Shown: positions 7,296 to 48,608 of the stretch, one piece after another
Layout of the letters: each line of letters starts with the position of its first letter
Position numbering within the stretch: the first letter of the stretch is position 1
DNA from: Patescibacteria group bacterium
GTDB taxonomy: Bacteria > Patescibacteriota > Dojkabacteria > JAHIVN01
Direction of reading: 5' to 3'
NCBI GenBank assembly: GCA_043816305.1
Contig: JBDRHZ010000023.1
Coordinates: forward strand, 7,720-71,719
DNA length: 64,000 nt
The notes under the pieces: generated by a model
The model's database searches: none
Told to the model about the DNA's origin: nothing
What the model saw: only the letters and a program-made list of their open reading frames with translations
Translations under genes and position numbers: made by a program

Positions 7296-7763
7296 ATGAA
7301 AGCCATGAAAACAATGGGAATTGATTACGGCGACAAAAGAATCGGACTTGCAATCTCTGACGACACGGGATTCTTGGCAAGTCCTATACCTACACTCAAA
7401 GTGAATTCTCTCGCGGATGCTGTTTCAAAGATACAAAGAATAATCAAAAATCAGAAAATTGCAAGAGTAGTCCTAGGTCTTCCTCTTGGGCCCAAGCGAG
7501 AAGAGACTCAAAAATCGATACAAATCAGATATTTTGCAGATGCGCTGAAAACTACAAATGGAGCTGAAATTGACTTCTGGAATGAATATTATTCAACGAA
7601 AAGTGCCCAACAAAACCTAGCTGCAGGAACAAAGCGAAAGAAAAGAAATCTAGATAGTGAAGCCGCAAGGATAATACTTCAAGAGTACCTAGACAATATT
7701 AAAACCCCAAAAGATAAATTCTTTCCCCAAGGCTATGACCAATTACTCATGAACGCCCCTTGA
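7296..7763 (+). CDS. ruvX: Putative pre-16S rRNA nuclease / Holliday junction resolvase-like YqgF
   Basis: MKAMKTMGIDYGDKRIGLAISD... is the YqgF/RuvX N-terminal motif. The ORF-track start at 7146 adds 50 implausible residues. The conserved ruvX-mltG neighbourhood supports the call. Confidence 0.85.
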   Translation: MKAMKTMGIDYGDKRIGLAISDDTGFLASPIPTLKVNSLADAVSKIQRIIKNQKIARVVLGLPLGPKREETQKSIQIRYFADALKTTNGAEIDFWNEYYSTKSAQQNLAAGTKRKKRNLDSEAARIILQEYLDNIKTPKDKFFPQGYDQLLMNAP

Positions 7764-16572: not shown

Positions 16573-18312
16573 ATGCCCAAATATTTCAAGGTTACAGTTC
16601 AACTCTTATTATTCCTTCTCCCAATTGGTCTTATTCTCAGCATCATAAGCCACATACCGGATTTTTTGCCCAAGGTAAAAGCCGCTTCGTGTCCTATGAC
16701 TACAAAGAACTGTGTACCATGTACTGCCAGTGAGCTTTACTGCAGACTCGAAGATGGTGAAGAATACGGCTATCTCGGCTGGGCTTGCCAGAACAACAAC
16801 CCGACAAATATCAAGTACTCACAATACAGAATAGATCTCATAACTCAAATGGGCGGTCAGACACCTTGTGGAGAGAAAGGTGCCTTCATGGTATTTTCCG
16901 ATTATAAAAAAGGAAGAAATTCTACAAAATCTTACATCAAGGCTATCAATGCCGGACTGCATTATGCATACCCGAAATGCGGCAACTGCACCCTGCTGGA
17001 GTTCTATCAGAGTTACGCGCCGGATAATCCGGAAGTCTATTCTCAAAGGATCGCAGAAATAATGGGTTCCCCGGTTACTAAAAATACGAAGATTTCTTGG
17101 ATTGTTGAAAACAGGCTTGATGACTTCATCAACGCCATGATGCATATGGAGGGCTTCTTCACTTTTTCAGGTGACATACAAAGTGATGTTGCTTTAACCA
17201 GTTACAAGACACCGGGTGAGCGGAAAATGTTGATTTCTGTTCGAAGAAGTGATGGAAACATATATACAAGAAAATATCTAAATGATAATGAATATACAAA
17301 CTGGGAGCGAAACGGGAACACCCAGGCAAATGTTACGATCACGACATTTGAAAATGACAGCGACCAGCAAGTCTTGATTCAGTCAGCTCGAAGTGACTCA
17401 AATAGGTTAACTCAGAGGTATTCAGTGAATGGTGCAACCTGGTCAACTTGGGTATCAGGAAGGAAAATTTCAGGGAATGTTTCTATGACAACTTTCATTT
17501 CAAGAGGAAGCACCAGAATGACTAGCTTCCTGTCAGTTTTCTTCACGTCTACCGAAAAAAGCTTGCTTTCACAAAGTGTCCGCGGACTAGATGACCAAGT
17601 TTACTCACGAATCAGCAACGACAGGATAAACTGGACTGATTGGTTCGGGAGTGATGGAGAAACAGCAGAAGATATCGAAATGACAGCCTTCAGCCCCACT
17701 CGGAACGTAGTACAAACTCGCAACAGCAGAGTCTACGGCAACCTTGTATTTCAGGCATCCAGAAATAAATCGGGCCAGCTTGCTACAAGATACTCTGAAA
17801 ACGGTCTCCAATTTACCGCCTGGGAAAAAAGCAGACAGATAAAGGGAAAGCCTTCTATGACAGCCTTCCAGCCCGGAACACGAAACGTTCACCCAGACAG
17901 CTCCATGCTTTTTCAGTCAGTGAGAGGTTCTGATAACTTTGTTTACACAAGGTATACAGTCGACGGGGCCAACTGGAGTAGCTGGAAGAAAAGTATAAAA
18001 ACCAACTTGGATATCGAAATGACAGTATATGAAAGGGGTATCATAAACATTCTCTATCAAACAATTGTCGGAACAGACAGCAGGGTATATACAAGATACA
18101 CGTTTAATGGGAAAGACTGGTCAGCGTGGGAATCTAGTACAACGTCTAAATCAAAAGTAACTATGTTGAACTTTTTACCTGATATACCCGAAAATGCACG
18201 GCAAATCGTAACTTCAAACAGGCTATATCAAGCTGTCATACGGTCTGACGAGGAATTGTACATGAGGTACACCTCGAATGGATTCAGCTGGACAAACTGG
18301 GAGAGATTTTAA
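16573..18312 (+). CDS. Secreted protein: Cys-rich N-terminal domain plus seven ~50-aa W-containing repeats (beta-propeller, lectin-like)
   Basis: Signal/TM peptide LLLFLLPIGLILSII. There are seven repeats of the pattern [LF]xQSxRGxDxxVYTRYxxxGxxWSxWxxS (NIYTRKY..TNWERN, RLTQRYS..WSTWVSG, QVYSRIS..WTDWFGS, QLATRYS..FTAWEKS, FVYTRYT..WSSWKKS, RVYTRYT..WSAWESS, ELYMRYT..WTNWERF). Confidence 0.7.
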   Translation: MPKYFKVTVQLLLFLLPIGLILSIISHIPDFLPKVKAASCPMTTKNCVPCTASELYCRLEDGEEYGYLGWACQNNNPTNIKYSQYRIDLITQMGGQTPCGEKGAFMVFSDYKKGRNSTKSYIKAINAGLHYAYPKCGNCTLLEFYQSYAPDNPEVYSQRIAEIMGSPVTKNTKISWIVENRLDDFINAMMHMEGFFTFSGDIQSDVALTSYKTPGERKMLISVRRSDGNIYTRKYLNDNEYTNWERNGNTQANVTITTFENDSDQQVLIQSARSDSNRLTQRYSVNGATWSTWVSGRKISGNVSMTTFISRGSTRMTSFLSVFFTSTEKSLLSQSVRGLDDQVYSRISNDRINWTDWFGSDGETAEDIEMTAFSPTRNVVQTRNSRVYGNLVFQASRNKSGQLATRYSENGLQFTAWEKSRQIKGKPSMTAFQPGTRNVHPDSSMLFQSVRGSDNFVYTRYTVDGANWSSWKKSIKTNLDIEMTVYERGIINILYQTIVGTDSRVYTRYTFNGKDWSAWESSTTSKSKVTMLNFLPDIPENARQIVTSNRLYQAVIRSDEELYMRYTSNGFSWTNWERF

Positions 18313-29237: not shown

Positions 29238-31835
29238 ATGAAGGGTATAGTCCGCTTAATAATCCATACTATTCCTATATTCATATTTTTTGTGGTTGTG
29301 TTTCTGTTCTATGGAACGAAGAGTCGAGCCTTTGCAGTGTTACTTGATACTCCGGATGAGGATATCTGGATTACAAATGGAATAGTAAGAGCTTCGGTGG
29401 CCGGTAATGATGGTATAGTCTACATCGGCGGCTCTTTTAATTATATTGGGCCAAATACAGGGAATGGAGTACCTTTTGATATAACTAACGGTGACCCCGT
29501 ATCTAGCTATCCTAAAATTGATGGCTTTGTGCGTACAGCAGTTCCCGATGGTTCGGGTGGTTTTTATTTAGGAGGATCATTCAACTATGCGGGGGGGATG
29601 CCACGAAATCGTCTTGTTCACCTTTTTTCTGATGGAACAGTTGATTTAGCATGGAATCCAAATTCAAATGGTGATGTTTACTCTTTAGCCGTTAGTGGGT
29701 CGATTATATATGTAGGTGGAGAATTCACATCGATCGGTGGTCAAACACGAAACCGAATTGCTGCTGTCGACACTTCTACTGGAGCTGTTACAACATGGAA
29801 TCCAAACGCAAATAATAGAGTTTTTGAGTTGTCGATAAGTGACTCGATAGTGTATGCAGGAGGATTCTTTACTACAATAGGAGGGCAACCAAGAAATCGT
29901 ATTGCAGCCTTAGATGTTTCGACCGGAAATGCCACAACATGGAATCCAAATGCAAATAGTCATGTAAGTACTTTGACTGTTAGTGGTTCGACAGTGTATG
30001 TCGGAGGAGGCTTTACTACAATAGGCGGCCAGTCAAGAAACTTTTTAGCTGCCTTAGATACAACATCCGGTAATGCTACAGCGTGGAATCCGAATGCAAA
30101 TAGTCAAGTGAGCACTATAGCTGTTAGTGGTTCAATAGTGTACGTTGGGGGAAATTTTTCTACAGTAGGCGGCCAGTCAAGAAATTATTTAGCTGCCTTA
30201 GATGCAACATCCGGTAATGCTACAGCGTGGAATCCGAATGCAAATAATCAAGTGGGTATTATTGCTGTTGTTGGTTCGACAGTGTATGTCGGGGGAAACT
30301 TTACAACAATAGGAAGCCAGTCGCGTAGGTCTATTGCTTCTCTTGATTCAATTACAGGAATTGCGACTGCATGGAACCCTGAAACAAGCGGTGTTCCAAT
30401 GACTTTGGCTGTTAGTGGTTCTATGCTGTATGTAGGTGGCAACTTTGTTTCCATTGGTGGAAAAGCAAGAAGCAATCTTGCCGCATTTGATACTTATACG
30501 GGAGAGTTTACAGAATGGGATCCTGTTTCGTCTGGTGATGTTTATACACTCGTATTTGATGATTCTAAAGTATATATCGGTGGGGACTTTTTCAATATTG
30601 GAGGTCAGTCCCGTTACCGAATTGCTGCAGTAGAAACCCCTACTGGTACCGTAACAGCGTGGAATCCAAGTGCTAATAACAGTGTTTTTTCAATCGCAGT
30701 AAATGGTTCAACAGTATATGCAGGAGGAAACTTTACAACAATAGGCGGCCAGTCAAGAAATTATTTGGCTGCCTTAGATGCAACATCCGGCAATGCTACT
30801 GTGTGGGATCCGAACGCAAATAGCTGGGTCAATACTATAACTATCGATGGTTCAACAGTATACGCAGGAGGAAACTTTACAACAATAGGCGGTCAGTCAA
30901 GAAATTATTTGGCTGCCTTAGATGCAACATCCGGTAATGCTACTGCGTGGGATCCGAATGCAAATAGTTCAGTGACTAGCGTGGCTGTTAGTGATTCTAT
31001 GCTGTATGTATGTGGAGCTTTCAAAGCATTCCAAAATAATCTTCTTTATCGTCCTAGTTTTGCGAGATTCAACGATGATTCTACTGCACCAGTTATTTCG
31101 CTCACGGCTTTATCACCAGATCCAACAACCGATCTTAGTCCGACGTTCTGGGGTACGGCTACAGATGACTTAAATACAGTGACATTAGTTGAATTTCAAA
31201 TAGATAGTACTTCTGGCTCATGGACGACTTGTGTTTCTGACGATGGTACATTTGATGAAGCTTCGGAAATTTTTACTTGCGACGTTTCCGCTTTGACTGA
31301 TGGCAGTCATAAAATTTATGTTCGTGCTACCGATAGTACTGGTAATACTACAGGTTCCGGTAGTGAAGCAACGGATACATTTACTGTTGATACTACAGTA
31401 GAAGGGAAAACCATTTCAATAGGGGGAAAACTAATTGAAGAAGGTAAAGACAATGCGGAAATCGGAAATAAGAAACCCGAGTTCAGAGGAAGTGGAGAGC
31501 CAGAAGCATTGGTTACAATAGTACTAAGTGGAGATGGTATAGTGGTGATAGGAAGAACAGCAGTAGGAGAAGATGGAAGTTGGGCATGGAAACCGAATGA
31601 AGCTCTGCCTAACGGTGAATATACTGTCATTATTACTTATGAAGATAGAGTTGGTAATACAAGAGAGGAAAAGTTCACACTTATAATAAAAGCTGGATCT
31701 ATTGACACAACTGAAACTGAACTTGCTGATAGCGGGGGTAATAGTAGATATATGATAATATATGGACTAATCCTTATCACTTTTTCTCTAGGAATATATA
31801 GACAGGATACATCCGTGATAATGATTAAACTTTAA
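29238..31835 (+). CDS. Large surface protein: signal/TM peptide, about 12 x 48-aa beta-propeller repeats (DUF5122/delta-60-like), two Ig-like domains, C-terminal LADSG + TM + tail
   Basis: The repeat unit WNPNANxxVxxxAVSGSxVYVGGNFTTIGGQSRNYLAALDATSGNAT occurs ten times plus two divergent N-terminal units. It is followed by Ig-like segments (PTFWGTATDD...DGSHKIYVRATDSTGN; PEFRGSGEPEALVTIV...DGSWAWKP...LPNGEYTVIITYEDRVGN). The protein ends ELADSGGNSRYMIIYGLILITFSLGIYRQD. Confidence 0.8.
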   Translation: MKGIVRLIIHTIPIFIFFVVVFLFYGTKSRAFAVLLDTPDEDIWITNGIVRASVAGNDGIVYIGGSFNYIGPNTGNGVPFDITNGDPVSSYPKIDGFVRTAVPDGSGGFYLGGSFNYAGGMPRNRLVHLFSDGTVDLAWNPNSNGDVYSLAVSGSIIYVGGEFTSIGGQTRNRIAAVDTSTGAVTTWNPNANNRVFELSISDSIVYAGGFFTTIGGQPRNRIAALDVSTGNATTWNPNANSHVSTLTVSGSTVYVGGGFTTIGGQSRNFLAALDTTSGNATAWNPNANSQVSTIAVSGSIVYVGGNFSTVGGQSRNYLAALDATSGNATAWNPNANNQVGIIAVVGSTVYVGGNFTTIGSQSRRSIASLDSITGIATAWNPETSGVPMTLAVSGSMLYVGGNFVSIGGKARSNLAAFDTYTGEFTEWDPVSSGDVYTLVFDDSKVYIGGDFFNIGGQSRYRIAAVETPTGTVTAWNPSANNSVFSIAVNGSTVYAGGNFTTIGGQSRNYLAALDATSGNATVWDPNANSWVNTITIDGSTVYAGGNFTTIGGQSRNYLAALDATSGNATAWDPNANSSVTSVAVSDSMLYVCGAFKAFQNNLLYRPSFARFNDDSTAPVISLTALSPDPTTDLSPTFWGTATDDLNTVTLVEFQIDSTSGSWTTCVSDDGTFDEASEIFTCDVSALTDGSHKIYVRATDSTGNTTGSGSEATDTFTVDTTVEGKTISIGGKLIEEGKDNAEIGNKKPEFRGSGEPEALVTIVLSGDGIVVIGRTAVGEDGSWAWKPNEALPNGEYTVIITYEDRVGNTREEKFTLIIKAGSIDTTETELADSGGNSRYMIIYGLILITFSLGIYRQDTSVIMIKL
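29652..31070 (+). repeat. In-frame 144-nt tandem coding repeats inside the propeller gene
   Basis: Ten consecutive 48-codon units. Some units are near-identical at nucleotide level, for example GGCCAGTCAAGAAATTATTT[A/G]GCTGCCTTAGATGCAACATCCGG[T/C]AATGCTAC at about 30171, 30750 and 30891. Confidence 0.85.
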
Positions 31836-40535: not shown

Positions 40536-40672
40536 ATCAACTTGAAATATAAAATCAACATTACCGGCTAATAATAGCAGTAAATCGAATCATAGACAAG
40601 AAAAGAAATAAGAAAAAAGATATTGTAAAAGAATCATATTTGCACTATTATATAATATATTCTGAAAATACT

Positions 40673-43030
40673 ATGAACAAATTCAAAAAAATTATCCCAG
40701 CCGTTTTTATCGTATTTGGTATGACGATTACTGCCTTGACTGCATACTACATCCAGTATCAGCAGGAACTTCGTTCGAGTGCAGCAATCCCCGAGACGAT
40801 ATATGTTCGGCAGACTTGTGACCCGACAGATCCGGAATGCGCTGTTACTGTAAACGATGCCTTGGGCCGGGTTCACGACGGATGGACTATTCAGATAGAA
40901 ATTCCGGTATATGATGATATGGCTATCATAAGTCCTGACTATTTGAATCCGGATCTTTTAGACGATAATCCTCATGAATTTACTATCAGGGGAAAAGGAG
41001 TAGATCAGACTACATGGAAAATGACTCTCGAAGGTGTTGGAAACGGACATACAGTTCACATAGAGAGATTAAATAAAATAACCATAAATTTTAAGGATAT
41101 TACCTTTGACAGTGACACTTTTGTCAACAGCACTATCCACATATACGGACATAACACAAATGGAGGACAGGATCCCAACCCAAATACCGACTGCACTTTC
41201 AATTTTGAGAACATAAAGGTCTTGAATAGCAAAGCTGCCGGAATATACTTCAGCGGAGAAAATTCCGGAAGTGTTAAAAGCTCCTACTTTTCGAACAACG
41301 AATGGCCGGGTGTTTCAGTACATGGGAATGGAAAGGTCACAATTGAAGACAGTAAATTCGAGAATCATCAACATCAGGGTATCGATGCCAGGGATAATGC
41401 TTTTGTCGCTATAAAGACAAGTGAATTCTCAGGAAATAATATTAAAGAAGAAGATTACACAAAAGGTGCAATTTATTTCTATCAAAATTCCGAGGGAAGT
41501 ATATTATCAAATAAAATCCAGAATAATGCATTTGGTATAATTCTTAGTGGTGACTCCAAGGTACAAATTACAGATAATATTATCAAAAGCAATCACAAAT
41601 GTGGAATATACATAACTTCTAATTCGAATGTAGGCATTGTAGGGAATCAGATATCTGAGAATACTGATTTTGGAGTACAGGGGGATGGAAATGTATTGGC
41701 TGTAATAAAAAACAACCTTGTGTACAATAATACAAAAACTGGTATTAAAATTTTTGACAATACTATTACCCAATTAATTAATAATAATGCAGTGGGTAAC
41801 GGAGGACACGGGATAGACTTGCTTGATAATGTCAAAGGCACAGTCCTCAATAACATAAGTGCTTTCAATGAAGAAGGTGGTATCAGGGCAGCTACACAAA
41901 GCAACTTTACGAGCCTTGAATACAACCTCGCTTTCGGGAATGCTGGAGGCGACTGGAACAATTTCTCCGACTGGCCGCCGGCTACAAATTTGACAGTTGA
42001 TCCAAAATTTGTTAATCAGAATGATTATCATCTCCAGACAGGTTCGCCTGCTATCGATGCAGGACACCCCGATGCTGATTACAACGACCCTGACGGCTCG
42101 AAAAATGATATTGGTGCTTATGGAGGTCCGGGTGCCTGCAATCTAGATCCTGATCTTCCAGGTTGTTTAGCTGTCTGTACTCCCCAGTGTGATGGTAAAG
42201 AATGCGGCGATGACGGGTGCGGAGGAACTTGCCCTTTTGGATGTTCAAATGATCATGGCTCTACTCAATGCGATTCCGGTCTTTGCAATCCTACATGTGA
42301 CGCTGACTGGGGTAACTGTGACGGCATCAATCCCAACGGCTGCGAAACTGATCTATTGAACTCAAACAGCCACTGCGGTCAGTGCGGTAATGCCTGTGGA
42401 GCTGGACAAACCTGTCAAACGGGCACTTGTGTAGATATCTCATGTACTACTGACGAAGAATGCAAGCCCGACTGTTCCGGAGTAAAGCGAGCACCATATA
42501 TGTGTGACACAGCTCTCAGTATTTGTGTTTTTGGTGACCCGCTTGTCTGTGATAAAGAATGCGGTGCAGAATGTACTGCAGATAGTGACTGTAGTGATGA
42601 TAAAGTTTGTGATACAAGCAATTGTACCTGCAAGATTCCTCCAATGAAATGTGCCCAAAACAGTGACTGTGATGACGAGAACGACTGTACGATAGATACT
42701 TGCAATATTCTCTCCGGTGTCTGCTCGAATACATCTCTGCCGGATGGTACTATCTGTTCCTCCTGCGAAGGGGACAACTGCAAGTGTGACGATGGTATCT
42801 GCAAAGAGCCTTCATCTGCCGATTGTTCTATAGCTGATATCTGGGGTGAGGAAAGTAAACCTGACGGCAAAGTCAGTGCTCATGACCTCTCCCTCATACT
42901 TGCTAACTGGAAGTGGCAGAAGACTCCAAAGGATGTGCAGACTGACATCTGGGGAGAGGCTGATAAGCCGGATGGAATGGTAAACGCATATGACTTGTCA
43001 AAAGTTCTAGGCTGCTGGACGAAGCACTAA
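40673..43030 (+). CDS. Secreted parallel beta-helix (PbH1-repeat) protein with Cys-rich modules and a C-terminal dockerin-like twin-segment tail
   Basis: Start MNKFKKIIPAVFIVFGMTITALTA. Repeated ..I.NN.. beta-helix turns (SGNNIK.., ILSNKIQNNAFGI.., ITDNIIKSNHKCGIYI.., IVGNQISENTDFGV.., IKNNLVYNNTKTGI..). Then DPKFVN..DYHLQTGSPAIDAG...DIGAYGG, CGDDGCGGTC and further Cys-rich modules. The tail is CSIADIWGEESKPDGKVSAHDLSLILANWKWQKTPKDVQTDIWGEADKPDGMVNAYDLSKVLGCWTKH. Confidence 0.8.
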   Translation: MNKFKKIIPAVFIVFGMTITALTAYYIQYQQELRSSAAIPETIYVRQTCDPTDPECAVTVNDALGRVHDGWTIQIEIPVYDDMAIISPDYLNPDLLDDNPHEFTIRGKGVDQTTWKMTLEGVGNGHTVHIERLNKITINFKDITFDSDTFVNSTIHIYGHNTNGGQDPNPNTDCTFNFENIKVLNSKAAGIYFSGENSGSVKSSYFSNNEWPGVSVHGNGKVTIEDSKFENHQHQGIDARDNAFVAIKTSEFSGNNIKEEDYTKGAIYFYQNSEGSILSNKIQNNAFGIILSGDSKVQITDNIIKSNHKCGIYITSNSNVGIVGNQISENTDFGVQGDGNVLAVIKNNLVYNNTKTGIKIFDNTITQLINNNAVGNGGHGIDLLDNVKGTVLNNISAFNEEGGIRAATQSNFTSLEYNLAFGNAGGDWNNFSDWPPATNLTVDPKFVNQNDYHLQTGSPAIDAGHPDADYNDPDGSKNDIGAYGGPGACNLDPDLPGCLAVCTPQCDGKECGDDGCGGTCPFGCSNDHGSTQCDSGLCNPTCDADWGNCDGINPNGCETDLLNSNSHCGQCGNACGAGQTCQTGTCVDISCTTDEECKPDCSGVKRAPYMCDTALSICVFGDPLVCDKECGAECTADSDCSDDKVCDTSNCTCKIPPMKCAQNSDCDDENDCTIDTCNILSGVCSNTSLPDGTICSSCEGDNCKCDDGICKEPSSADCSIADIWGEESKPDGKVSAHDLSLILANWKWQKTPKDVQTDIWGEADKPDGMVNAYDLSKVLGCWTKH
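42824..43027 (+). other. Dockerin-like 68-aa tail module, copy 1
   Basis: Two segments DIWG-x3-KPDGKV-x-A-[HY]-DLS-x-[IV]L separated by an 11-aa linker, bracketed by a Cys at position 1 and GCW near the end. Confidence 0.6.
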
Positions 43031-43084
43031 TCTTCTAGTTGTAATGCTACTGGAAATATCCTATCATTTCTATCGTTAGTATGT

Positions 43085-44635
43085 ATGATCCTGAAAAAAC
43101 TGGGGAAAGTCATAATTATATTCACTATTGTTATTGGAACTAGCATATCGGTTTATTCTGTGATGTCTGACAAGAGCCTTGACATTCGAGATAAGGCTGC
43201 AACAGATATTCCCTCAGTTGATTGTCCGTCAGGTAAAAAATGTGTTGCACTCATCATTGGGAAGATTGCTTACGAACAAGTACAGCCTAGTATTGACCAG
43301 TTTATCAAAGATGCAGAAGCACGAGAAGAAATAAAAATCTTTCTTTTAAATGATAATTCCTACGAGAACTATACCCCTGAACAAATTAGAGACGTTTTGA
43401 TAGATTATTATAATAACAAGAGTATTCAAGGGGCAATACTTGTTGGAAGAATTCCCTATTCGCTTTGGGAAAATGGATGGGATGAGAATAAGGGAGTCAA
43501 TAGTTTCTTCTACGAAGATTTGGATGGAAGCTGGTATGATAATGACTCTGATGGTTATTATGACTATCATACTTGGGGAACAAATGACGGTCCTGAAATT
43601 TGGGTCTCATGGATTTATCCTTCTGATGTTTCCCCTACTCAAAACACTAAGGATTTGACCTACTTCTTCTCCAAAACACATGACTATTATACAGGAAACA
43701 TCCAATACAATGAAAGGTCATTGATTATGCTTCACACTGACTGGTCCCAAGATATGGATTTTTATTACGAAAAAATTTCAGATATTTATGGACCAGAAGT
43801 TGATACCAGGGGAGGGTTTGATTCCTCTGGGAACAGGATTGAAGTTGATGGGCTTGAATACCTTTCACTAATTAAAAATCCGTACCAGATGACGCTATTA
43901 TATGTGCATGGCGACAATAACACTCATTATCCAAATATTAACCACATAAAAAAGGAAAAATTAGAACAAAATGGAGGCGGATCAATAATCACATTTATTG
44001 GAGGCTGCCATACAGGAGATCTATTGGAATCTAAACAAGATATCCCTATCGCCGAGACTTATCTTTTCAGAATGCCAATTGGATTAGTTTCAACAGCAAC
44101 TACTTGGTCATACGGCCCAGAAGAATTACAAGAGGTGACTGAGGCTCTAAATGAGAATATTAATTTTGCAGATGCATGGTTCAGTAAACAAACGTACCGA
44201 AACAATAGTACATTCTACAAAAAAAGATATGGTGATGATTTTGATCCAAACATTCATATGTTCGGAGAAATTCTTTTTGGGAACCCACTCATTAAGCTGA
44301 ATGAACCGAGTTGCATTCCAAACTGCCAAGAGAAGACATGTGGGGATGATGGTTGCAGAGGAAACTGTGGTAACTGCATTTCAGATGAAATCTGTAGTGA
44401 AAATGTCTGTATTCCAAAGAAAACAACATGTTCTGTTGCGGATATATGGGGACCAAAAAAGAAGCCTGATAACAAAATTGACGCATATGACCTTTCACTA
44501 CTTCTCGCTAACTGGAAATGGAAGAAGTCTCCAAAAGATAAACAGGCTGATATCTGGGGAGCTGCTGATAAGCCTGATGCGAAAGTAAATTCTTACGATT
44601 TGTCAAAAGTATTAGGCTGCTGGACGAAACACTAA
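43085..44635 (+). CDS. Secreted clan-CD (gingipain/C25-like) cysteine peptidase candidate with a dockerin-like tail
   Basis: Signal/TM peptide VIIIFTIVIGTSISVYS. LLYVHGDNN (His at codon 275, nt 43907) and ITFIGGCHTGD (Cys at codon 308, nt 44006) form a His-Gly ... hydrophobic strand-Cys arrangement 33 residues apart. Then CGDDGCRGNCGNC. The tail is CSVADIWGPKKKPDNKIDAYDLSLLLANWKWKKSPKDKQADIWGAADKPDAKVNSYDLSKVLGCWTKH. Confidence 0.6.
   Translation: MILKKLGKVIIIFTIVIGTSISVYSVMSDKSLDIRDKAATDIPSVDCPSGKKCVALIIGKIAYEQVQPSIDQFIKDAEAREEIKIFLLNDNSYENYTPEQIRDVLIDYYNNKSIQGAILVGRIPYSLWENGWDENKGVNSFFYEDLDGSWYDNDSDGYYDYHTWGTNDGPEIWVSWIYPSDVSPTQNTKDLTYFFSKTHDYYTGNIQYNERSLIMLHTDWSQDMDFYYEKISDIYGPEVDTRGGFDSSGNRIEVDGLEYLSLIKNPYQMTLLYVHGDNNTHYPNINHIKKEKLEQNGGGSIITFIGGCHTGDLLESKQDIPIAETYLFRMPIGLVSTATTWSYGPEELQEVTEALNENINFADAWFSKQTYRNNSTFYKKRYGDDFDPNIHMFGEILFGNPLIKLNEPSCIPNCQEKTCGDDGCRGNCGNCISDEICSENVCIPKKTTCSVADIWGPKKKPDNKIDAYDLSLLLANWKWKKSPKDKQADIWGAADKPDAKVNSYDLSKVLGCWTKH
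44429..44632 (+). other. Dockerin-like 68-aa tail module, copy 2
   Basis: Same twin-segment architecture and same length as copies 1 and 3. Confidence 0.6.
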
Positions 44636-44692
44636 AGCCAGTTGTAAAACCTCTGGAAATATTCTATTATTCAATAGATCAGAAAGATAATC

Positions 44693-46528
44693 ATGAATCA
44701 AAAGAAACTAAAGTCCTTCATTATAGCGCTCGTACTTGTCATCGCTACAATAATCGTAATTTACCTCGCAACCTCCGACGAAAGTCTTGATATCCGTAAT
44801 CAAGCATCCGGCGGAGAAACTATAACTGTTTGCTTTAACGGAGGAGCTGATTGTGATTTCGATTACGAAAACGGTGATGATAAACAGGCTATTCAATCCG
44901 CAATCGACCTGGCTCAAGATGGTGATACTGTACAACTAGAGGAAGGCATATACGAGATAGACAGTTACATCAACCAATATGATAATTATTACGGCACAGC
45001 AGCAGGAATCGGAATCCATGATTCTATCACGTTAAAAGGTGCCGGCCTTACAAAGACCATCATAAAGGGGCTGAAAGACTGGAATACTTATGGAATTCAT
45101 GTAGGACTGCTCACAATAAGTGAATCGGAAGATTTTAAAATCGAGGAGTTAACCTTGATTTCGAAAGGGAAATCTGTTCCAGCTATATATACTTATAGTT
45201 CTCAAGGAGAGATCCATAATAATCTTTTGAAGGCGCCTAAACATTTAGGTCTTTATATTGACGAATCTTCAGATGTAGAGATCAAGAACAATATTGTGAC
45301 CGAATGTCAGTACTTCGGTATCTTTGTTGAAAAATCTGATGCTGTTATAAAAAACAATATTGTCTTTAGAAACAATGATCAAGGGATAACGTCCTTTCCT
45401 GAAAGTACGATCGAGATCATAAACAACACTATAGTTGAAAATGGCCTGGACCCCGAGGGAGTAAGTTATGGAGCCGTCTCAATTATGAGAAGATCCTCTG
45501 CAAATATTATCAACAACATTATCGCAAATAACAGAAATTATGGAATCTTTAATGATTCCGACAGATCATGGGCTGGTGAATATATAAACGATTACAATAA
45601 TGTTTTCCAAAACGAACAAGGCAACTATTCAGATGTCGAGCCCGGAGAAAACTCTATCAGCGAGGACCCGGAATTTTATGAAGACGACAGTTACCTATAT
45701 CTACTAAAAGATACTTCCAGCTCGGTAGATTCTGGAGACCCTTCAATAGAGGACCCCTCGAGTAATGGAATCGAAGCAGATTTTCCTGCAAAGGGCTCTA
45801 AGGCATCTGATATAGGAGCATATGGAGGGCCCGACACAGCGGGTTGGGAACCATATCTACCATTCCCAGCTATAGACCCGATCTGCTCAAATGATGCTGA
45901 TTGTGAGCCTGACTGTGAAGGATATCATATGTATGAATACCTCTGCAGACAAGGAGACTGTGTATATGGAAGTGACTTGAAATGCAGTGCAAAGTGCGGT
46001 GCAGAGTGTACGACAAATAACGTTGGGGAGAGTGAGTGCGCGGATGGCTTCGAGTGCAACTTTGATAGCTGCAAATGTGAAATAGTTCTGCCTACAATTT
46101 GTGGCACAAATGAAAGCTGCAAACCTCCATGCGATGGCAAGAAAAGGCTTTCATACAGTTGTTTACGTACAGGGGCTGAAGGATTCTGTGTATTTGGAGA
46201 AGAGCCGACTTGCAACAAGGACTGCGGAGCTGAATGCACCAAAGACGGAGATTGTACTGTCGGCAAGTGCAACTTGAAAGCTTGCACTTGTGAATCTACA
46301 ACCCCGCCGCCTGTAAAAAATTGCGAGGAGAGTGACATCTGGGGCCCGTTAGAGAAACCAGATGACAAGGTAAGTGCTTATGATCTGTCACTCATTCTTT
46401 CAAACTGGAAATGGCAGAAAACTCCAAAGGACGAACAGGCTGATATATGGGGAACTTCACAAAAGGCTGACGGAAATGTAAATGCCTATGACCTGTCAAA
46501 AGTACTAGGCTGCTGGACAAAAAAATAA
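44693..46528 (+). CDS. Secreted parallel beta-helix (PbH1-repeat) protein with two Cys-rich modules and a dockerin-like tail
   Basis: Signal/TM peptide FIIALVLVIATIIVIYLA. Beta-helix turns (VEIKNNIVTECQYFGIFV, AVIKNNIVFRNNDQGI, IEIINNTIVENG, ANIINNIIANNRNYGIF), then SEDPEF...DIGAYGG. The tail is CEESDIWGPLEKPDDKVSAYDLSLILSNWKWQKTPKDEQADIWGTSQKADGNVNAYDLSKVLGCWTKK. Confidence 0.8.
   Translation: MNQKKLKSFIIALVLVIATIIVIYLATSDESLDIRNQASGGETITVCFNGGADCDFDYENGDDKQAIQSAIDLAQDGDTVQLEEGIYEIDSYINQYDNYYGTAAGIGIHDSITLKGAGLTKTIIKGLKDWNTYGIHVGLLTISESEDFKIEELTLISKGKSVPAIYTYSSQGEIHNNLLKAPKHLGLYIDESSDVEIKNNIVTECQYFGIFVEKSDAVIKNNIVFRNNDQGITSFPESTIEIINNTIVENGLDPEGVSYGAVSIMRRSSANIINNIIANNRNYGIFNDSDRSWAGEYINDYNNVFQNEQGNYSDVEPGENSISEDPEFYEDDSYLYLLKDTSSSVDSGDPSIEDPSSNGIEADFPAKGSKASDIGAYGGPDTAGWEPYLPFPAIDPICSNDADCEPDCEGYHMYEYLCRQGDCVYGSDLKCSAKCGAECTTNNVGESECADGFECNFDSCKCEIVLPTICGTNESCKPPCDGKKRLSYSCLRTGAEGFCVFGEEPTCNKDCGAECTKDGDCTVGKCNLKACTCESTTPPPVKNCEESDIWGPLEKPDDKVSAYDLSLILSNWKWQKTPKDEQADIWGTSQKADGNVNAYDLSKVLGCWTKK
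46322..46525 (+). other. Dockerin-like 68-aa tail module, copy 3
   Basis: Same twin-segment architecture and same length as copies 1 and 2. Confidence 0.6.
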
Positions 46529-46545
46529 TATTTTAGAAACATTTA

Positions 46546-47163
46546 ATGAAACTCAAGCCAGTTTTATTCTTAATCATAATCTTTACCTTTACTCTTTTAG
46601 CTCATCCAGGCAAAACTTGTGCGCAAACAGCATCCCTGTCCTTTGAGCCAAATACCATAACAGCGATAGGAAATGAAGACGTTGTTATAACAGTTTATCT
46701 TGACACTAACTCAACAGAGACAAATACTATCACGGTAGATATTGACTACGATCCTAAGATTCTCGAAGTTACAGAACTCGATACACAAAACAGTGTTTTT
46801 GAATCCAGCGCCGAAGAAGACTTCGGTAATGGCAACATCCTTCTCACCAGATTTATGAGTCCAGGTAATTTATTTAAAGGCAAGGGAGAATTACTAAAGG
46901 TGAAGTTCCGCATCTTACAAGAGACGGCTTCGACTGTTCGTTTTGGAGATAAAACCTTAGTTCTGGATACGTCCGCCAATTCCCTTGACCTGTCGAGTGG
47001 CACATTATCTATAAACGATGAGGTTGGTAATGTAACAGATATTGTCATAGACAAAGATAATTCATATCTAATAATATTGGCCGTTGTGTTTGTTGTAGTT
47101 ATTTTACTTGTTGCATATCTACTGTCAAGAAAAAGGAAAGGCCAGTTTGCTCAACAAGGATAA
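46546..47163 (+). CDS. Cohesin-like domain protein, signal peptide plus C-terminal TM anchor
   Basis: Signal peptide ...LLAHPGKTCA. ASLSFEPNTITAIGNEDVVITVYLDTNSTETNTITVDIDYDPKILEVTELD...GKGELLKVKFRILQETASTVRF follows the cohesin pattern (..G..v.v.v......v...dftl.YDp..Levv.v...........G.la.v.Fkv..). It ends YLIILAVVFVVVILLVAYLLSRKRKG. Confidence 0.6.
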   Translation: MKLKPVLFLIIIFTFTLLAHPGKTCAQTASLSFEPNTITAIGNEDVVITVYLDTNSTETNTITVDIDYDPKILEVTELDTQNSVFESSAEEDFGNGNILLTRFMSPGNLFKGKGELLKVKFRILQETASTVRFGDKTLVLDTSANSLDLSSGTLSINDEVGNVTDIVIDKDNSYLIILAVVFVVVILLVAYLLSRKRKGQFAQQG

Positions 47164-47223
47164 AAAACAGGGGACTTGTTTTGTCATTTTGTTTATTATA
47201 GTCTATAATAGTTTTTATTAAAT

Positions 47224-47874
47224 ATGAGAAATACTGCTGTGAAAATAAACCTTCAAAAGATCACCACCCTGATTTCTGCTTTCTTGATCTCGTTTGTATG
47301 TTTGCCAAACCTTGGAGTGAAGGCGCAAACAGCAGATGCTTCTCTTTACTTTTCACCCGTTTCTACTTCAGTTTCGCTAAACGGTACCGTAAGCGTAGCA
47401 ATTATGGTCAATACAGGGGGAAACTCTGTAAATACTGTAACTGCCGACTTTACTTATCCAACAGATACTTTGCAAATTATCAATATCGATTCGACAAATA
47501 GCGAATTCAGCGTCGAGGCTGAAGAGGATCATACTTCAGGTACGGTTTATATCACCAGAGCCACCTCTGGAGGAGATAGTTATTCTGGCATCGGTGAAGT
47601 GACAACAATTAACTTTAGAGGTATAGCGGCTGGAACAGCCACATTGACATTTACGGGAGACGCAGTTGTAATGGATGCAGACACTTCACATGACATACTT
47701 GGAACGGCAAGCAACGGAACGCTCACTGTAAGCTCATCATCCCTGCCGAACACCGGTCTTTATGATAAGCCGCTTTTCTTTCTTGTTATTACTATTGCCT
47801 TGCTTTTCATTACCTTAGGGTTTGCCGGAGTTGCACAATACAAAGAAGATTTAAAAATTAAACGCCATAATTAA
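47224..47874 (+). CDS. Cohesin-like domain protein with LPNTG sortase-type sorting signal
   Basis: ASLYFSPVSTSVSLNGTVSVAIMVNTGGNSVNTVTADFTYPTDTLQIINID...GIGEVTTINFRGIAAGTATLTF. The C-terminus SLPNTG plus hydrophobic FFLVITIALLFITLGFAGV plus a KEDLKIKRHN tail forms the sorting signal. Confidence 0.6.
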   Translation: MRNTAVKINLQKITTLISAFLISFVCLPNLGVKAQTADASLYFSPVSTSVSLNGTVSVAIMVNTGGNSVNTVTADFTYPTDTLQIINIDSTNSEFSVEAEEDHTSGTVYITRATSGGDSYSGIGEVTTINFRGIAAGTATLTFTGDAVVMDADTSHDILGTASNGTLTVSSSSLPNTGLYDKPLFFLVITIALLFITLGFAGVAQYKEDLKIKRHN

Positions 47875-47891
47875 ACTTTAAGTTAAATAAA

Positions 47892-48608
47892 ATGAAGAAA
47901 AACATTCCTGTTCTTTTGCTTTCCATTTTAACATTTCTATTTGTGCTGCCCTTTGGAGTCAGGGCAGAAACAGGCAAAGCAACGCTCGAATTCAAGCACA
48001 AGAACTTCCAGGATGAGGTAATCGTTACCGATATTTACTTGAATACCGGCGGGGAGAAAGTGAATACAGTAACTGCAGATTTCAAGTATCCTTCGAAGGT
48101 GCTTGAAGTAACTGCTATAAACACCGATTCTTCATTGTTCCCATATTTTGTTGAGAAGGATTTCTCAAAACCAGGTGCCGTTTATATTTCCTGCTTTTCG
48201 CTAGAAGGCGTAAATGCAGAAGGAGTAATCGCCACAGTAACTTTCAAATCTCTGAGTTCAGGAAAAGCGGAACTTACGTTTACTGAAGATGCAGTAGTAC
48301 TAGATGTAGATACTTCATCAAACATTCTCACATCGACTGAGCCAGCCTTATACACAATTTCTGACGACTTGAATATTCTTCCACAAACCGGATCAACCGA
48401 TCAATCTGTTATGCTGGGATTGTTCGTCCTCATTCTCCTTGTAATGATAGTACTCTTCGCATTAGCGGGCTTTACGATATGGGGCGGAATCTACTTCAGC
48501 ATGGGAAAGCTGAAACTTGAAGGAAAATATGAAGTCGGGTTAGGGAAGTCGAAGAAGGAAAAGGCTGTAAAGTCAAAGAGAGAGGCAACTTCTACTAAAA
48601 AGAAGTAA
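47892..48608 (+). CDS. Cohesin-like domain protein with LPQTG sortase-type sorting signal and a long basic tail
   Basis: ATLEFKHKNFQDEVIVTDIYLNTGGEKVNTVTADFKYPSKVLEVTAIN...GVIATVTFKSLSSGKAELTF. Then ILPQTG plus hydrophobic MLGLFVLILLVMIVLFALAGFTIWGGIYF plus a Lys-rich tail. Confidence 0.6.
   Translation: MKKNIPVLLLSILTFLFVLPFGVRAETGKATLEFKHKNFQDEVIVTDIYLNTGGEKVNTVTADFKYPSKVLEVTAINTDSSLFPYFVEKDFSKPGAVYISCFSLEGVNAEGVIATVTFKSLSSGKAELTFTEDAVVLDVDTSSNILTSTEPALYTISDDLNILPQTGSTDQSVMLGLFVLILLVMIVLFALAGFTIWGGIYFSMGKLKLEGKYEVGLGKSKKEKAVKSKREATSTKKK

Follow-up and report, generated by a model that had tools for sequence, protein, structure and literature searches.

The 64,000-nucleotide (nt) stretch of DNA analysed here (positions 7,720 to 71,719 of contig JBDRHZ010000023.1, GenBank assembly GCA_043816305.1, from a Patescibacteria group bacterium of the Dojkabacteria), which we call the window, contains a block of six co-oriented genes, numbered 1 to 6 in order (Table 1). 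We consider it likely that a Dojkabacteria-like Patescibacteria cell uses this block as a surface-display cassette of the non-cellulosomal cohesin–dockerin kind: genes 1-3 encode proteins with different bodies and a common dockerin-like tail, and genes 4-6 encode small proteins, each with one cohesin domain and an anchor. A sequence-only reading of the window had pointed to six such genes, with a gap of 17 nt after gene 3, and the open reading frame (ORF) listing recovers them on the + strand where that reading had placed them. Its description of the genome as AT-rich and typical of the candidate phyla radiation (CPR) is accurate as well (GC content of the window ~0.39; Patescibacteria). Current annotation sees half of the system: the cohesins are named (genes 4, 5 and 6 are each a ‘cohesin domain-containing protein’ at NCBI), and the tail proteins are labelled ‘hypothetical’ or ‘beta-helix’ (gene 1 is a right-handed parallel beta-helix repeat-containing protein), with the dockerin tail left unlabelled.

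The assignment of genes 4-6 draws on sequence profiles and on a structural model. Gene 4 scores 27.6 bits against Pfam Cohesin (PF00963), above the gathering score of 24.1; gene 6 reaches a sub-threshold 16.1 bits, and gene 5 had no Cohesin match in the Pfam scan. The three are members of one family (family hidden Markov model (HMM), E 1e-38 to 1e-49; gene 6 E 1.8e-49), and gene 6 also has a weak match to EF0750_LPXTG in NCBIfam. A domain-only cohesin profile found 105 relatives, mostly ~145-265 amino acids (aa) long and most of them carrying PF00963; the named ones come from Parcubacteria, Microgenomates, Doudnabacteria and other Patescibacteria. A profile built from the three window sequences gave insignificant matches in the PDB, and the 108-sequence family profile matches solved cohesins (3l8q, E 3.4e-7; 1g1k, E 4.8e-6). 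The gene 5 domain, modelled by AlphaFold2 from the 108-sequence alignment (pLDDT 94.6, pTM 0.88), is all-beta and has the flattened beta-sandwich jelly-roll of cohesins. When the model was compared with the PDB by Foldseek, ranks 1-38 were all cohesin or cohesin-like modules, the best being 6kgf_C (Clostridium acetobutylicum CohA2; E 2.2e-10, template modelling (TM) score 0.81). The model contains neither a helix nor flaps, and the fold is therefore type-I-like. The cohesin assignment made from the sequence alone thus survived both the profile and the structural check, and genes 4-6 are, on the evidence of these profiles and the model, single-cohesin proteins.

Each of these proteins ends in an anchor, and the three kinds previously proposed (transmembrane helix, LPNTG, LPQTG) can be read as such in genes 4, 5 and 6. 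Gene 4 has a transmembrane helix and a basic tail, with no LPXTG. The gene 5 signal (LPNTG, a hydrophobic stretch and a KIKRHN end) fits the sortase-type pattern. In gene 6, LPQTG is likewise followed by a hydrophobic stretch, though the conserved Lys-rich tail after it is atypically long (~40 aa). The anchor type is kept in each orthologue (transmembrane helix, LPNTG, LPQTG) in the closest other genome, Candidatus Dojkabacteria STE_192, whose corresponding locus is L001 (comparison loci from other genomes and contigs carry L numbers). Cohesin orthologues of the window and STE_192 are 44, 63 and 73% identical and paralogues 21-33%, so the three cohesins are old and distinct. In the cohesin proteins of the gene 6 type (C-terminus at 48393-48605 in the window; L001 12061-12780; L008 10001-10711), LPQTG or LPETG and the hydrophobic stretch precede this strongly conserved Lys-rich segment (WGGIYFSMGKLKLEGKYEVGLGKSKKEK...); sortase substrates do not usually end in this way, and the segment may point to a function in the cytoplasm or to membrane retention.

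The tails of genes 1-3 are the second half of the proposed pair. Their last 68 aa are 69-75% identical in pairwise comparison, which agrees with the earlier claim of a common tail on different bodies. At the DNA level the tails are 71-75% identical, and codons for the same residue differ in 39-49% of cases: the copies are therefore old, and it is selection at the protein level that keeps them similar. Recent duplication or gene conversion as the cause of their likeness is rejected in view of this heavy synonymous divergence. Each tail is a tandem duplication, with two 25-residue repeats (DIWG...PDG.V..YDLS..L..W) in which 14-16 of 25 residues are alike. A Cys before repeat 1 and a Cys in the final ‘GCW’ are both conserved, which suggests a disulfide clasp. 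Tails within one genome are 69-75% (window) or 60-72% (STE_192) identical, and orthologous tails of the two genomes 60-68%. STE_192 also holds other tail classes (a pair in L003 and one in L004), which are ~50% identical to the tails of the locus.

A word-indexed search with the tails found one protein only, and a profile of the three tails gave insignificant matches in the PDB; when 1.84 billion cluster representatives were searched exhaustively with HMMER, only 83 proteins reached E<=1e-3 and 23 of these E<=1e-10, so the family is a rare one. The family is a continuum of long-loop (DIWGxxxxPDGxVNxYDLS), mixed and short-loop members, the last with textbook dockerin loops (DINGDGKIDMSDL), and a NWKWxKxPRD linker is common to short-loop and long-loop members. 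In an alignment of 48 sequences, no columns are invariant other than those of the Asp at positions 1, 5 and 12 in each of the two loops, and S, N or D occupies position 9. Dockerin_1 (PF00404) is matched individually by 29 of the 48 family tails (best E 1.7e-10) and EF-hand_1 by five. Against the PDB, the family profile found dockerins best (4fl4_A, E 2.3e-4; 5k39_B; 2y3n_B), ahead of calmodulin. The long-loop subfamily was also aligned by hhalign with five Patescibacteria dockerins that adjoin cohesin genes: the probability was 98.1% (E 6.5e-14), and the five-residue gap falls exactly at the loop insertion. The Dockerin_1 scan covered four of these five, all above the Pfam cut-off at 30-40 bits; the remaining one is a truncated orthologue. 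Homology of the tail to dockerins is thus well supported by sequence comparison. The earlier term ‘dockerin-like’ stands; the Pfam scores of the window tails taken alone are given below.

The three proteins differ in what precedes the tail. Genes 1 and 3 had been described as beta-helix proteins, and Pfam agrees: gene 1 matches Beta_helix (E 5e-24) and NosD (E 4e-15), and gene 3 matches Beta_helix (E 7.8e-26) and NosD and has a weak pectate-lyase-like match. Their bodies are ~30% alike, and neither has sequence relatives in the PDB. The gene 2 body is unrelated to these two, with which the protein shares, besides the tail, only the N-terminal leader and a short Cys-rich spacer. The sequence-only reading had called it His/Cys peptidase-like, a description that found no backing: the body has no Pfam match even at E 10, no NCBIfam match and no PDB sequence match, and the only homologue found is its STE_192 orthologue (71%) in L001. 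By eye only, it shows a hydrophobic block with HG (LLYVHGD) and then a hydrophobic block with GC (IITFIGGCH), the order seen in clan CD. For membership in clan CD (caspase/gingipain-type Cys peptidases), no profile or PDB sequence match was found. A glycoside hydrolase payload had been said to be absent; none is found at the Pfam level, and the statement holds at that level only. Beta-helix proteins are often carbohydrate-active.

Across the tail family, beta-helix proteins are the commonest cargo (12 of 42), and other members carry Peptidase_S8, GH5 cellulase, M23, Exo_endo_phos, a Kelch propeller or 3-keto-disaccharide hydrolase. Because the cargo is so diverse, the tail can be regarded as a portable module. 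In the body, gene 3 is 28% identical to its positional counterpart in L001; in the tail, the figure is 68%. Between body and tail lie Cys-rich spacers, presumably disulfide-rich stalks. A short spacer, ‘C..K.CGDDGCGG.CG.C’, is found in genes 1 and 2 and in many members of the tail family, and a module of ~55 aa, ‘C..D..C.PDC.G....Y.C.....CVFG....C.K.CGAECT.D.DC’, in genes 1 and 3 and in two further proteins, P0030 and P0037.

Genes 1-3 also share a leader: basic residues, a transmembrane helix of ~20 aa and then (D/E)(I/L)R(D/N/S)(K/Q/S)A at aa 32-38. It recurs in tail proteins of L001, L003, L004, L012 and L015. A relaxed pattern, (D/E)(I/L/V/T)R(D/N/S/K)(K/Q/E/S)A at about aa 31-38 combined with a transmembrane filter, matched 10 of the 319 ORFs of >=100 aa in the window and all loci, and nine of the ten are tail proteins; the lone exception is a Metallophos paralogue in L012. 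The filter dropped gene 2 of the window, although this gene carries DIRDKA. Genes 4-6, unlike the tail proteins, have ordinary signal peptides. The leader may be a dedicated export or processing signal.

Gene neighbourhoods in other genomes link the two modules. Scanning GTDB (one genome per species) with the tail profile gave seven loci and JGI metagenomes four more; five further loci came through cohesin homologues, and local HMM searches covered all ORFs of all loci. In L001 of STE_192, three tail genes are followed by three cohesin genes, with flanks as in the window (DHH-like, FtsK, YGGT-like, DUF2330). L002, from an unclassified metagenome-assembled genome, and L013, a metagenome contig that matches it, share an order of two cohesin genes (the first transmembrane-anchored, the second LPHTA-anchored) followed by a tail gene for a 311-aa protein, in which the tail lies near the N-terminus. 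In two genomes of Saccharibacteria (L006, L007) and in a metagenome contig of like arrangement (L016), one or more dockerin genes end 0-4 nt before a cohesin gene for ~400 aa. In L012, also from Patescibacteria, a Metallophos gene with Dockerin_1 (39.8 bits) directly precedes two cohesin genes. Tail or dockerin genes thus adjoin cohesin genes in four separate gene arrangements across Patescibacteria. The expectation that tail and receptor would co-occur in relatives was borne out by this adjacency in several lineages; some tail genes have no cohesin nearby, and we return to these below. The computational checks of profiles, fold and co-occurrence that the sequence-only reading had called for all favoured it, and none produced a result that it had named as refuting.

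Some of these loci hold variants of the two modules. The protein at 5161-6717 of L006 combines Cohesin (43 bits), fn3 and then Dockerin_1 (34 bits), and P0037 likewise carries a cohesin and a dockerin; proteins of this composition could be adaptors or self-assembling chains. Three loci of another Patescibacteria lineage (L009 7378-10491, L010 7416-10430, L011 7423-11258) encode an unanchored cohesin, an LPXTG cohesin and then a protein of 589-774 aa. In L010 and L011 this third protein ends in a single ‘CYDCNGD..IN.LD..CF’ motif, of which L009 has a more degenerate version; tentatively, the motif may be half a dockerin. Genes for thioredoxin, thioredoxin reductase and DsbA lie just downstream in L009-L011.

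The display model starts from the domain identities, anchor motifs, gene adjacency and pattern of evolution described above and proposes how export, calcium, binding, partner choice and cargo function might fit them. The products of genes 1-3 would be exported via the Sec pathway through their unusual transmembrane leader, and those of genes 4-6 by ordinary signal peptides, after which a membrane helix (gene 4) or an LPXTG signal (genes 5 and 6) would hold them at the cell. The dockerin tails would then attach to one or more cohesins by a non-covalent contact that probably involves calcium. Docking of this kind would put the beta-helix proteins and the gene 2 cargo on the cell surface, where they might bind or cut polymers of a host cell or of the environment. 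It is the adjacency of the genes that suggests dockerin binding by genes 4-6. Strict one-to-one pairing of tails and cohesins was considered and is unlikely, given tails that are 69-75% identical and window cohesins that are only 26-32% identical to one another. The tails co-vary within a genome and the cohesins are old paralogues, so the tails probably share the same receptor or receptors, and the remaining cohesins may be receptors for further dockerin classes whose genes lie in other parts of the genome. The sequence classes fit a genome with several dockerin classes, each matched to a cohesin class, and with the three tails of the locus on one receptor. The L002 pair resembles the gene 4 type (transmembrane helix) and the gene 5 type (LPXT[GA]), while the gene 6 type occurs alone in L008; genes 4 and/or 5 are for this reason the somewhat likelier partners of the tails, a weak inference.

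Several observations weigh against a docking cassette. Two of the three window tails match Dockerin_1 at 15.2 bits (E 0.025), where the cut-off is 22.9, and the third does not match. Both loops have Trp at position 3 and an insertion of five residues between positions 4 and 5, so the tail is classed with the dockerins as a divergent, long-loop relative but kept apart from canonical type I; the canonical 12-residue loop has Asp or Asn at positions 1, 3, 5, 9 and 12, and the tails lack this arrangement. Dockerin-like repeats with no known cohesin partner are common elsewhere, for example in Planctomycetes-like members of the family. In STE_192, at least four more tail genes have no nearby cohesin (two in L003, one in L004, one in L005). 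L014 and L015, which resemble L004, have none nearby either, and the tail genes of L003, L004, L014 and L015 have no cohesin within 4-10 kb. Cellulosome producers likewise have dockerin genes distant from their cohesin genes. L008, from a third relative, has the same IF-2/DHH-like/FtsK neighbourhood and, after FtsK, only a cohesin gene of the gene 6 type followed by a PfkB kinase gene, with no tail genes there. The neighbourhood is thus found without the rest of the cassette, which indicates that the six genes are gained or lost as a unit. The sortase motif TLxTC was found in no ORF of the window; STE_192 has a sortase-like ORF (TLQTC) at 1273-1953 of L005, ~900 nt downstream of a tail-bearing gene fragment. 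Finally, the N-terminal transmembrane leader might stay uncleaved, in which case the cargo would already be tethered to the membrane.

One alternative is that the genes are neighbours and not partners. The tails would then be modules for calcium-binding stability or for binding glycans or other cells, the cohesins would have another ligand, and adjacency would reflect co-regulation of envelope genes. Besides sub-threshold tails that lack the canonical calcium loop, this explanation can call on the small anchored cohesin proteins, which are common in Patescibacteria (105 matches) and sometimes stand alone (L008), on the tail genes of L003 and L004, and on SEML1_0315, an essential dockerin-domain envelope protein of the cultured Saccharibacterium Southlakia epibionticum (Wang et al. 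2023, PMC10633639) whose gene has no cohesin gene as a neighbour. We nevertheless regard it as unlikely. The two families are each rare per genome, and direct adjacency in at least four arrangements and lineages is hard to obtain by chance; tails of the same genome are more alike than orthologous tails, as expected from a shared partner within the genome; and the two modules correspond by homology to the two partners of an established binding pair. It is also conceivable that the pair does bind and builds an extracellular or intercellular scaffold (chains of cohesin+dockerin proteins, a host tether, an attachment organelle) in which the beta-helix proteins would be adhesins or fibres and not enzymes. 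The proteins with both cohesin and dockerin (5161-6717 of L006; P0037), the predominance of beta-helix, immunoglobulin (Ig)-like and fn3 cargo, and the pairing of an unanchored with an anchored cohesin in some lineages (L009-L012) would all suit a scaffold. In the window, by contrast, every cohesin is anchored and each tail protein has one tail and no cohesin, which is a simple display topology, and the cargo of relatives includes clear enzymes (Peptidase_S8, GH5 cellulase, M23, Metallophos, Exo_endo_phos); a scaffold accordingly seems quite improbable here. Most improbable of all is that an uncleaved N-terminal helix does the tethering, with the tail either vestigial or folding onto a neighbouring cohesin for orientation or stability. 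The leader does consist of a transmembrane helix and a conserved (D/E)(I/L)R..A motif in place of a classical AxA signal-peptidase site. Yet this conserved motif after the helix looks more like a processing site than part of a simple anchor, and the tails are under strong purifying selection (the 39-49% codon figure above) and were retained where the body of the cargo was replaced.

A display cassette of this kind invites comparison with the cellulosome, in which a scaffoldin with several cohesins, usually with a carbohydrate-binding module (CBM), integrates dockerin-bearing glycoside hydrolases. The clostridial type I pairs (CaCohA2–CaDoc0917, 6KGF; C. cellulolyticum, 2VN5; C. thermocellum, 1OHZ) have a similar cohesin fold (TM score 0.77-0.81 to 6kgf, 1g1k and 2vn5), cell-anchored receptors and cargo that ends, as it does here, in a ~68-aa module with two copies of a loop-plus-helix unit; in the type I dockerins with a dual binding mode the two repeats are alike, as they are in the window tails. 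The differences are as clear: a multi-cohesin scaffoldin, a CBM and a glycoside-hydrolase Pfam domain are all absent from the locus, its receptors are three separate single-cohesin proteins, its tails have the Trp at position 3, the five-residue insertion and the conserved flanking Cys, and the window cohesins are only 12-22% identical to solved ones. The locus may be likened to a minimal cellulosome docking system, yet with these components absent it is not a cellulosome. It belongs with the already known non-cellulosomal cohesin–dockerin systems, modules of which were reportedly surveyed by Peer and colleagues in 2009. The examples from Archaeoglobus fulgidus (2XDH) and C. perfringens (2VO8, 2JH2) likewise involve no cellulosome and no cellulolytic cargo, and 2xdh (E 6.9e-9) and 2vo8 (E 5e-7) were among the best Foldseek matches of the gene 5 model. 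What differs from these examples is that both module types lie here in one tight cassette conserved between genomes, in a reduced Patescibacteria genome and with a rare long-loop dockerin. For the long loop, a parallel is the type II dockerin of C. thermocellum (5K39/5M0Y chain B), whose first loop, GDVERKGVQDNAINMVD, HMMER aligned with the extended loop of the tail family; an enlarged first loop therefore has a solved precedent in a cohesin-binding dockerin. Chain B differs from the tails in that its second loop is not extended, in the absence of Trp at position 3 and of the flanking Cys pair, and in working with an X-module and a type II cohesin. Genes 4-6 themselves belong to the widespread family of small (200-260 aa) Patescibacteria LPXTG ‘cohesin domain-containing’ proteins, which have been published as domain labels only. 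A full-text literature search found no paper on paired cohesin/dockerin operons in Patescibacteria, the nearest being the remark on the essential protein SEML1_0315, and the compact paired cassette with its recurrence, the long-loop Trp dockerin subclass and the associated leader appear to be undescribed so far.

Little is known of the ways in which Patescibacteria (CPR) cells adhere to their hosts and exploit them, and most of their surface proteins bear the label ‘hypothetical’. The locus offers a concrete wiring diagram, with three sockets, two anchoring chemistries, one common plug and swappable cargo. If the predicted binding is true, cohesin–dockerin biology would reach reduced-genome episymbionts, a new dockerin loop architecture would become available for structural study and for orthogonal designer scaffolds, and tail plus leader would be a sequence handle for cataloguing the displayed exoproteome. 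One could go further and suppose a lineage-wide ‘plug-and-display’ system of the CPR's own, in which anchored single cohesins stand beside dockerin exoproteins, the Dojkabacteria version has a long-loop, Cys-clasped dockerin subclass and the TM-DIRxxA leader, and the episymbiont surface is armed with hydrolases or adhesins for host contact, important or even essential for epibiotic life. This wider proposal is speculative, and we hold it to be possible though doubtful.

Table 1. Features of the six-gene locus, in coordinates of the window.
Feature	Positions	Strand	Description
Gene 1	40673-43030	+	785 aa; transmembrane leader with ELRSSA (aa 32-37), right-handed beta-helix body, ~220 aa of Cys-rich spacers, dockerin-like tail
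Gene 2	43085-44635	+	516 aa; transmembrane leader with DIRDKA (aa 33-38), ~400 aa body, short CGDDGCRGNCGNC spacer, dockerin-like tail
Gene 3	44693-46528	+	611 aa; transmembrane leader with DIRNQA (aa 33-38), beta-helix body, two Cys-rich modules, dockerin-like tail
Gene 4	46546-47163	+	205 aa; signal peptide, one cohesin domain, C-terminal transmembrane helix (aa 174-193), basic tail
Gene 5	47224-47874	+	216 aa; signal peptide, one cohesin domain, LPNTG (aa 174; 47743-47757), hydrophobic stretch, basic end
Gene 6	47892-48608	+	238 aa; signal peptide, one cohesin domain, LPQTG (aa 163; 48378-48392), transmembrane stretch, Lys-rich tail of ~40 aa
Tail 1 (gene 1, aa 718-785)	42824-43027	+	Duplicated long-loop dockerin-like module, CSIADIWGEESKPDGKVSAHDLSLILANW...DIWGEADKPDGMVNAYDLSKVLGCW
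Tail 2 (gene 2)	44429-44632	+	Dockerin-like, 68 aa
Tail 3 (gene 3)	46322-46525	+	Dockerin-like, 68 aa
Leader motif, gene 1	40766-40783	+	
Leader motif, gene 2	43181-43198	+	
Leader motif, gene 3	44789-44806	+	
Cys-rich spacer region, gene 1	~42160-42820		
Cys-rich spacer region, gene 2	~44310-44425		
Cys-rich spacer region, gene 3	~45870-46320		
Promoter-like site before gene 1	40623-40651	+	TTGTAA-N17-TATTAT; consensus match only
Promoter-like site before gene 2	43039-43067	+	Same site, TTGTAA-N17-TAT(T/C)AT; consensus match only
Promoter-like site before gene 3	44642-44670	+	Same site, TTGTAA-N17-TAT(T/C)AT; consensus match only
Promoter-like site before gene 5	47181-47209	+	TTGTCA-N17-TATAAT; consensus match only

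The intergenic gaps from gene 1 to gene 6 are 54, 57, 17, 60 and 17 nt. The start of gene 1 depends on the source: the mechanical ORF begins with TTG at 40640, and the public model with ATG at 40673 (MNKFKK). Genes 1, 2, 3-4 and 5-6 are suggested as candidate transcription units from the positions of the promoter-like sites and the 17-nt gaps before genes 4 and 6. The operon structure is only suggested because the promoter scan of the whole region gave 26 sites against 24.3 expected from shuffling, that is, no excess, and because the promoter and terminator scan found no + strand terminator within the locus. The spacers upstream of genes 2 and 3 are near-identical over ~40 nt (AGTTGTAA..C..CTGGAAATAT.CTAT.ATT), and this segment holds the promoter-like site. 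Elsewhere in the window, two further large secreted repeat proteins are encoded that have neither the tail nor the leader: a 579-aa Trp-rich repeat protein with no Pfam match (16573-18312) and a DUF5122 beta-propeller of 865 aa that also carries Big_13 Ig-like domains and, at its C-terminus, a transmembrane helix (29238-31835).

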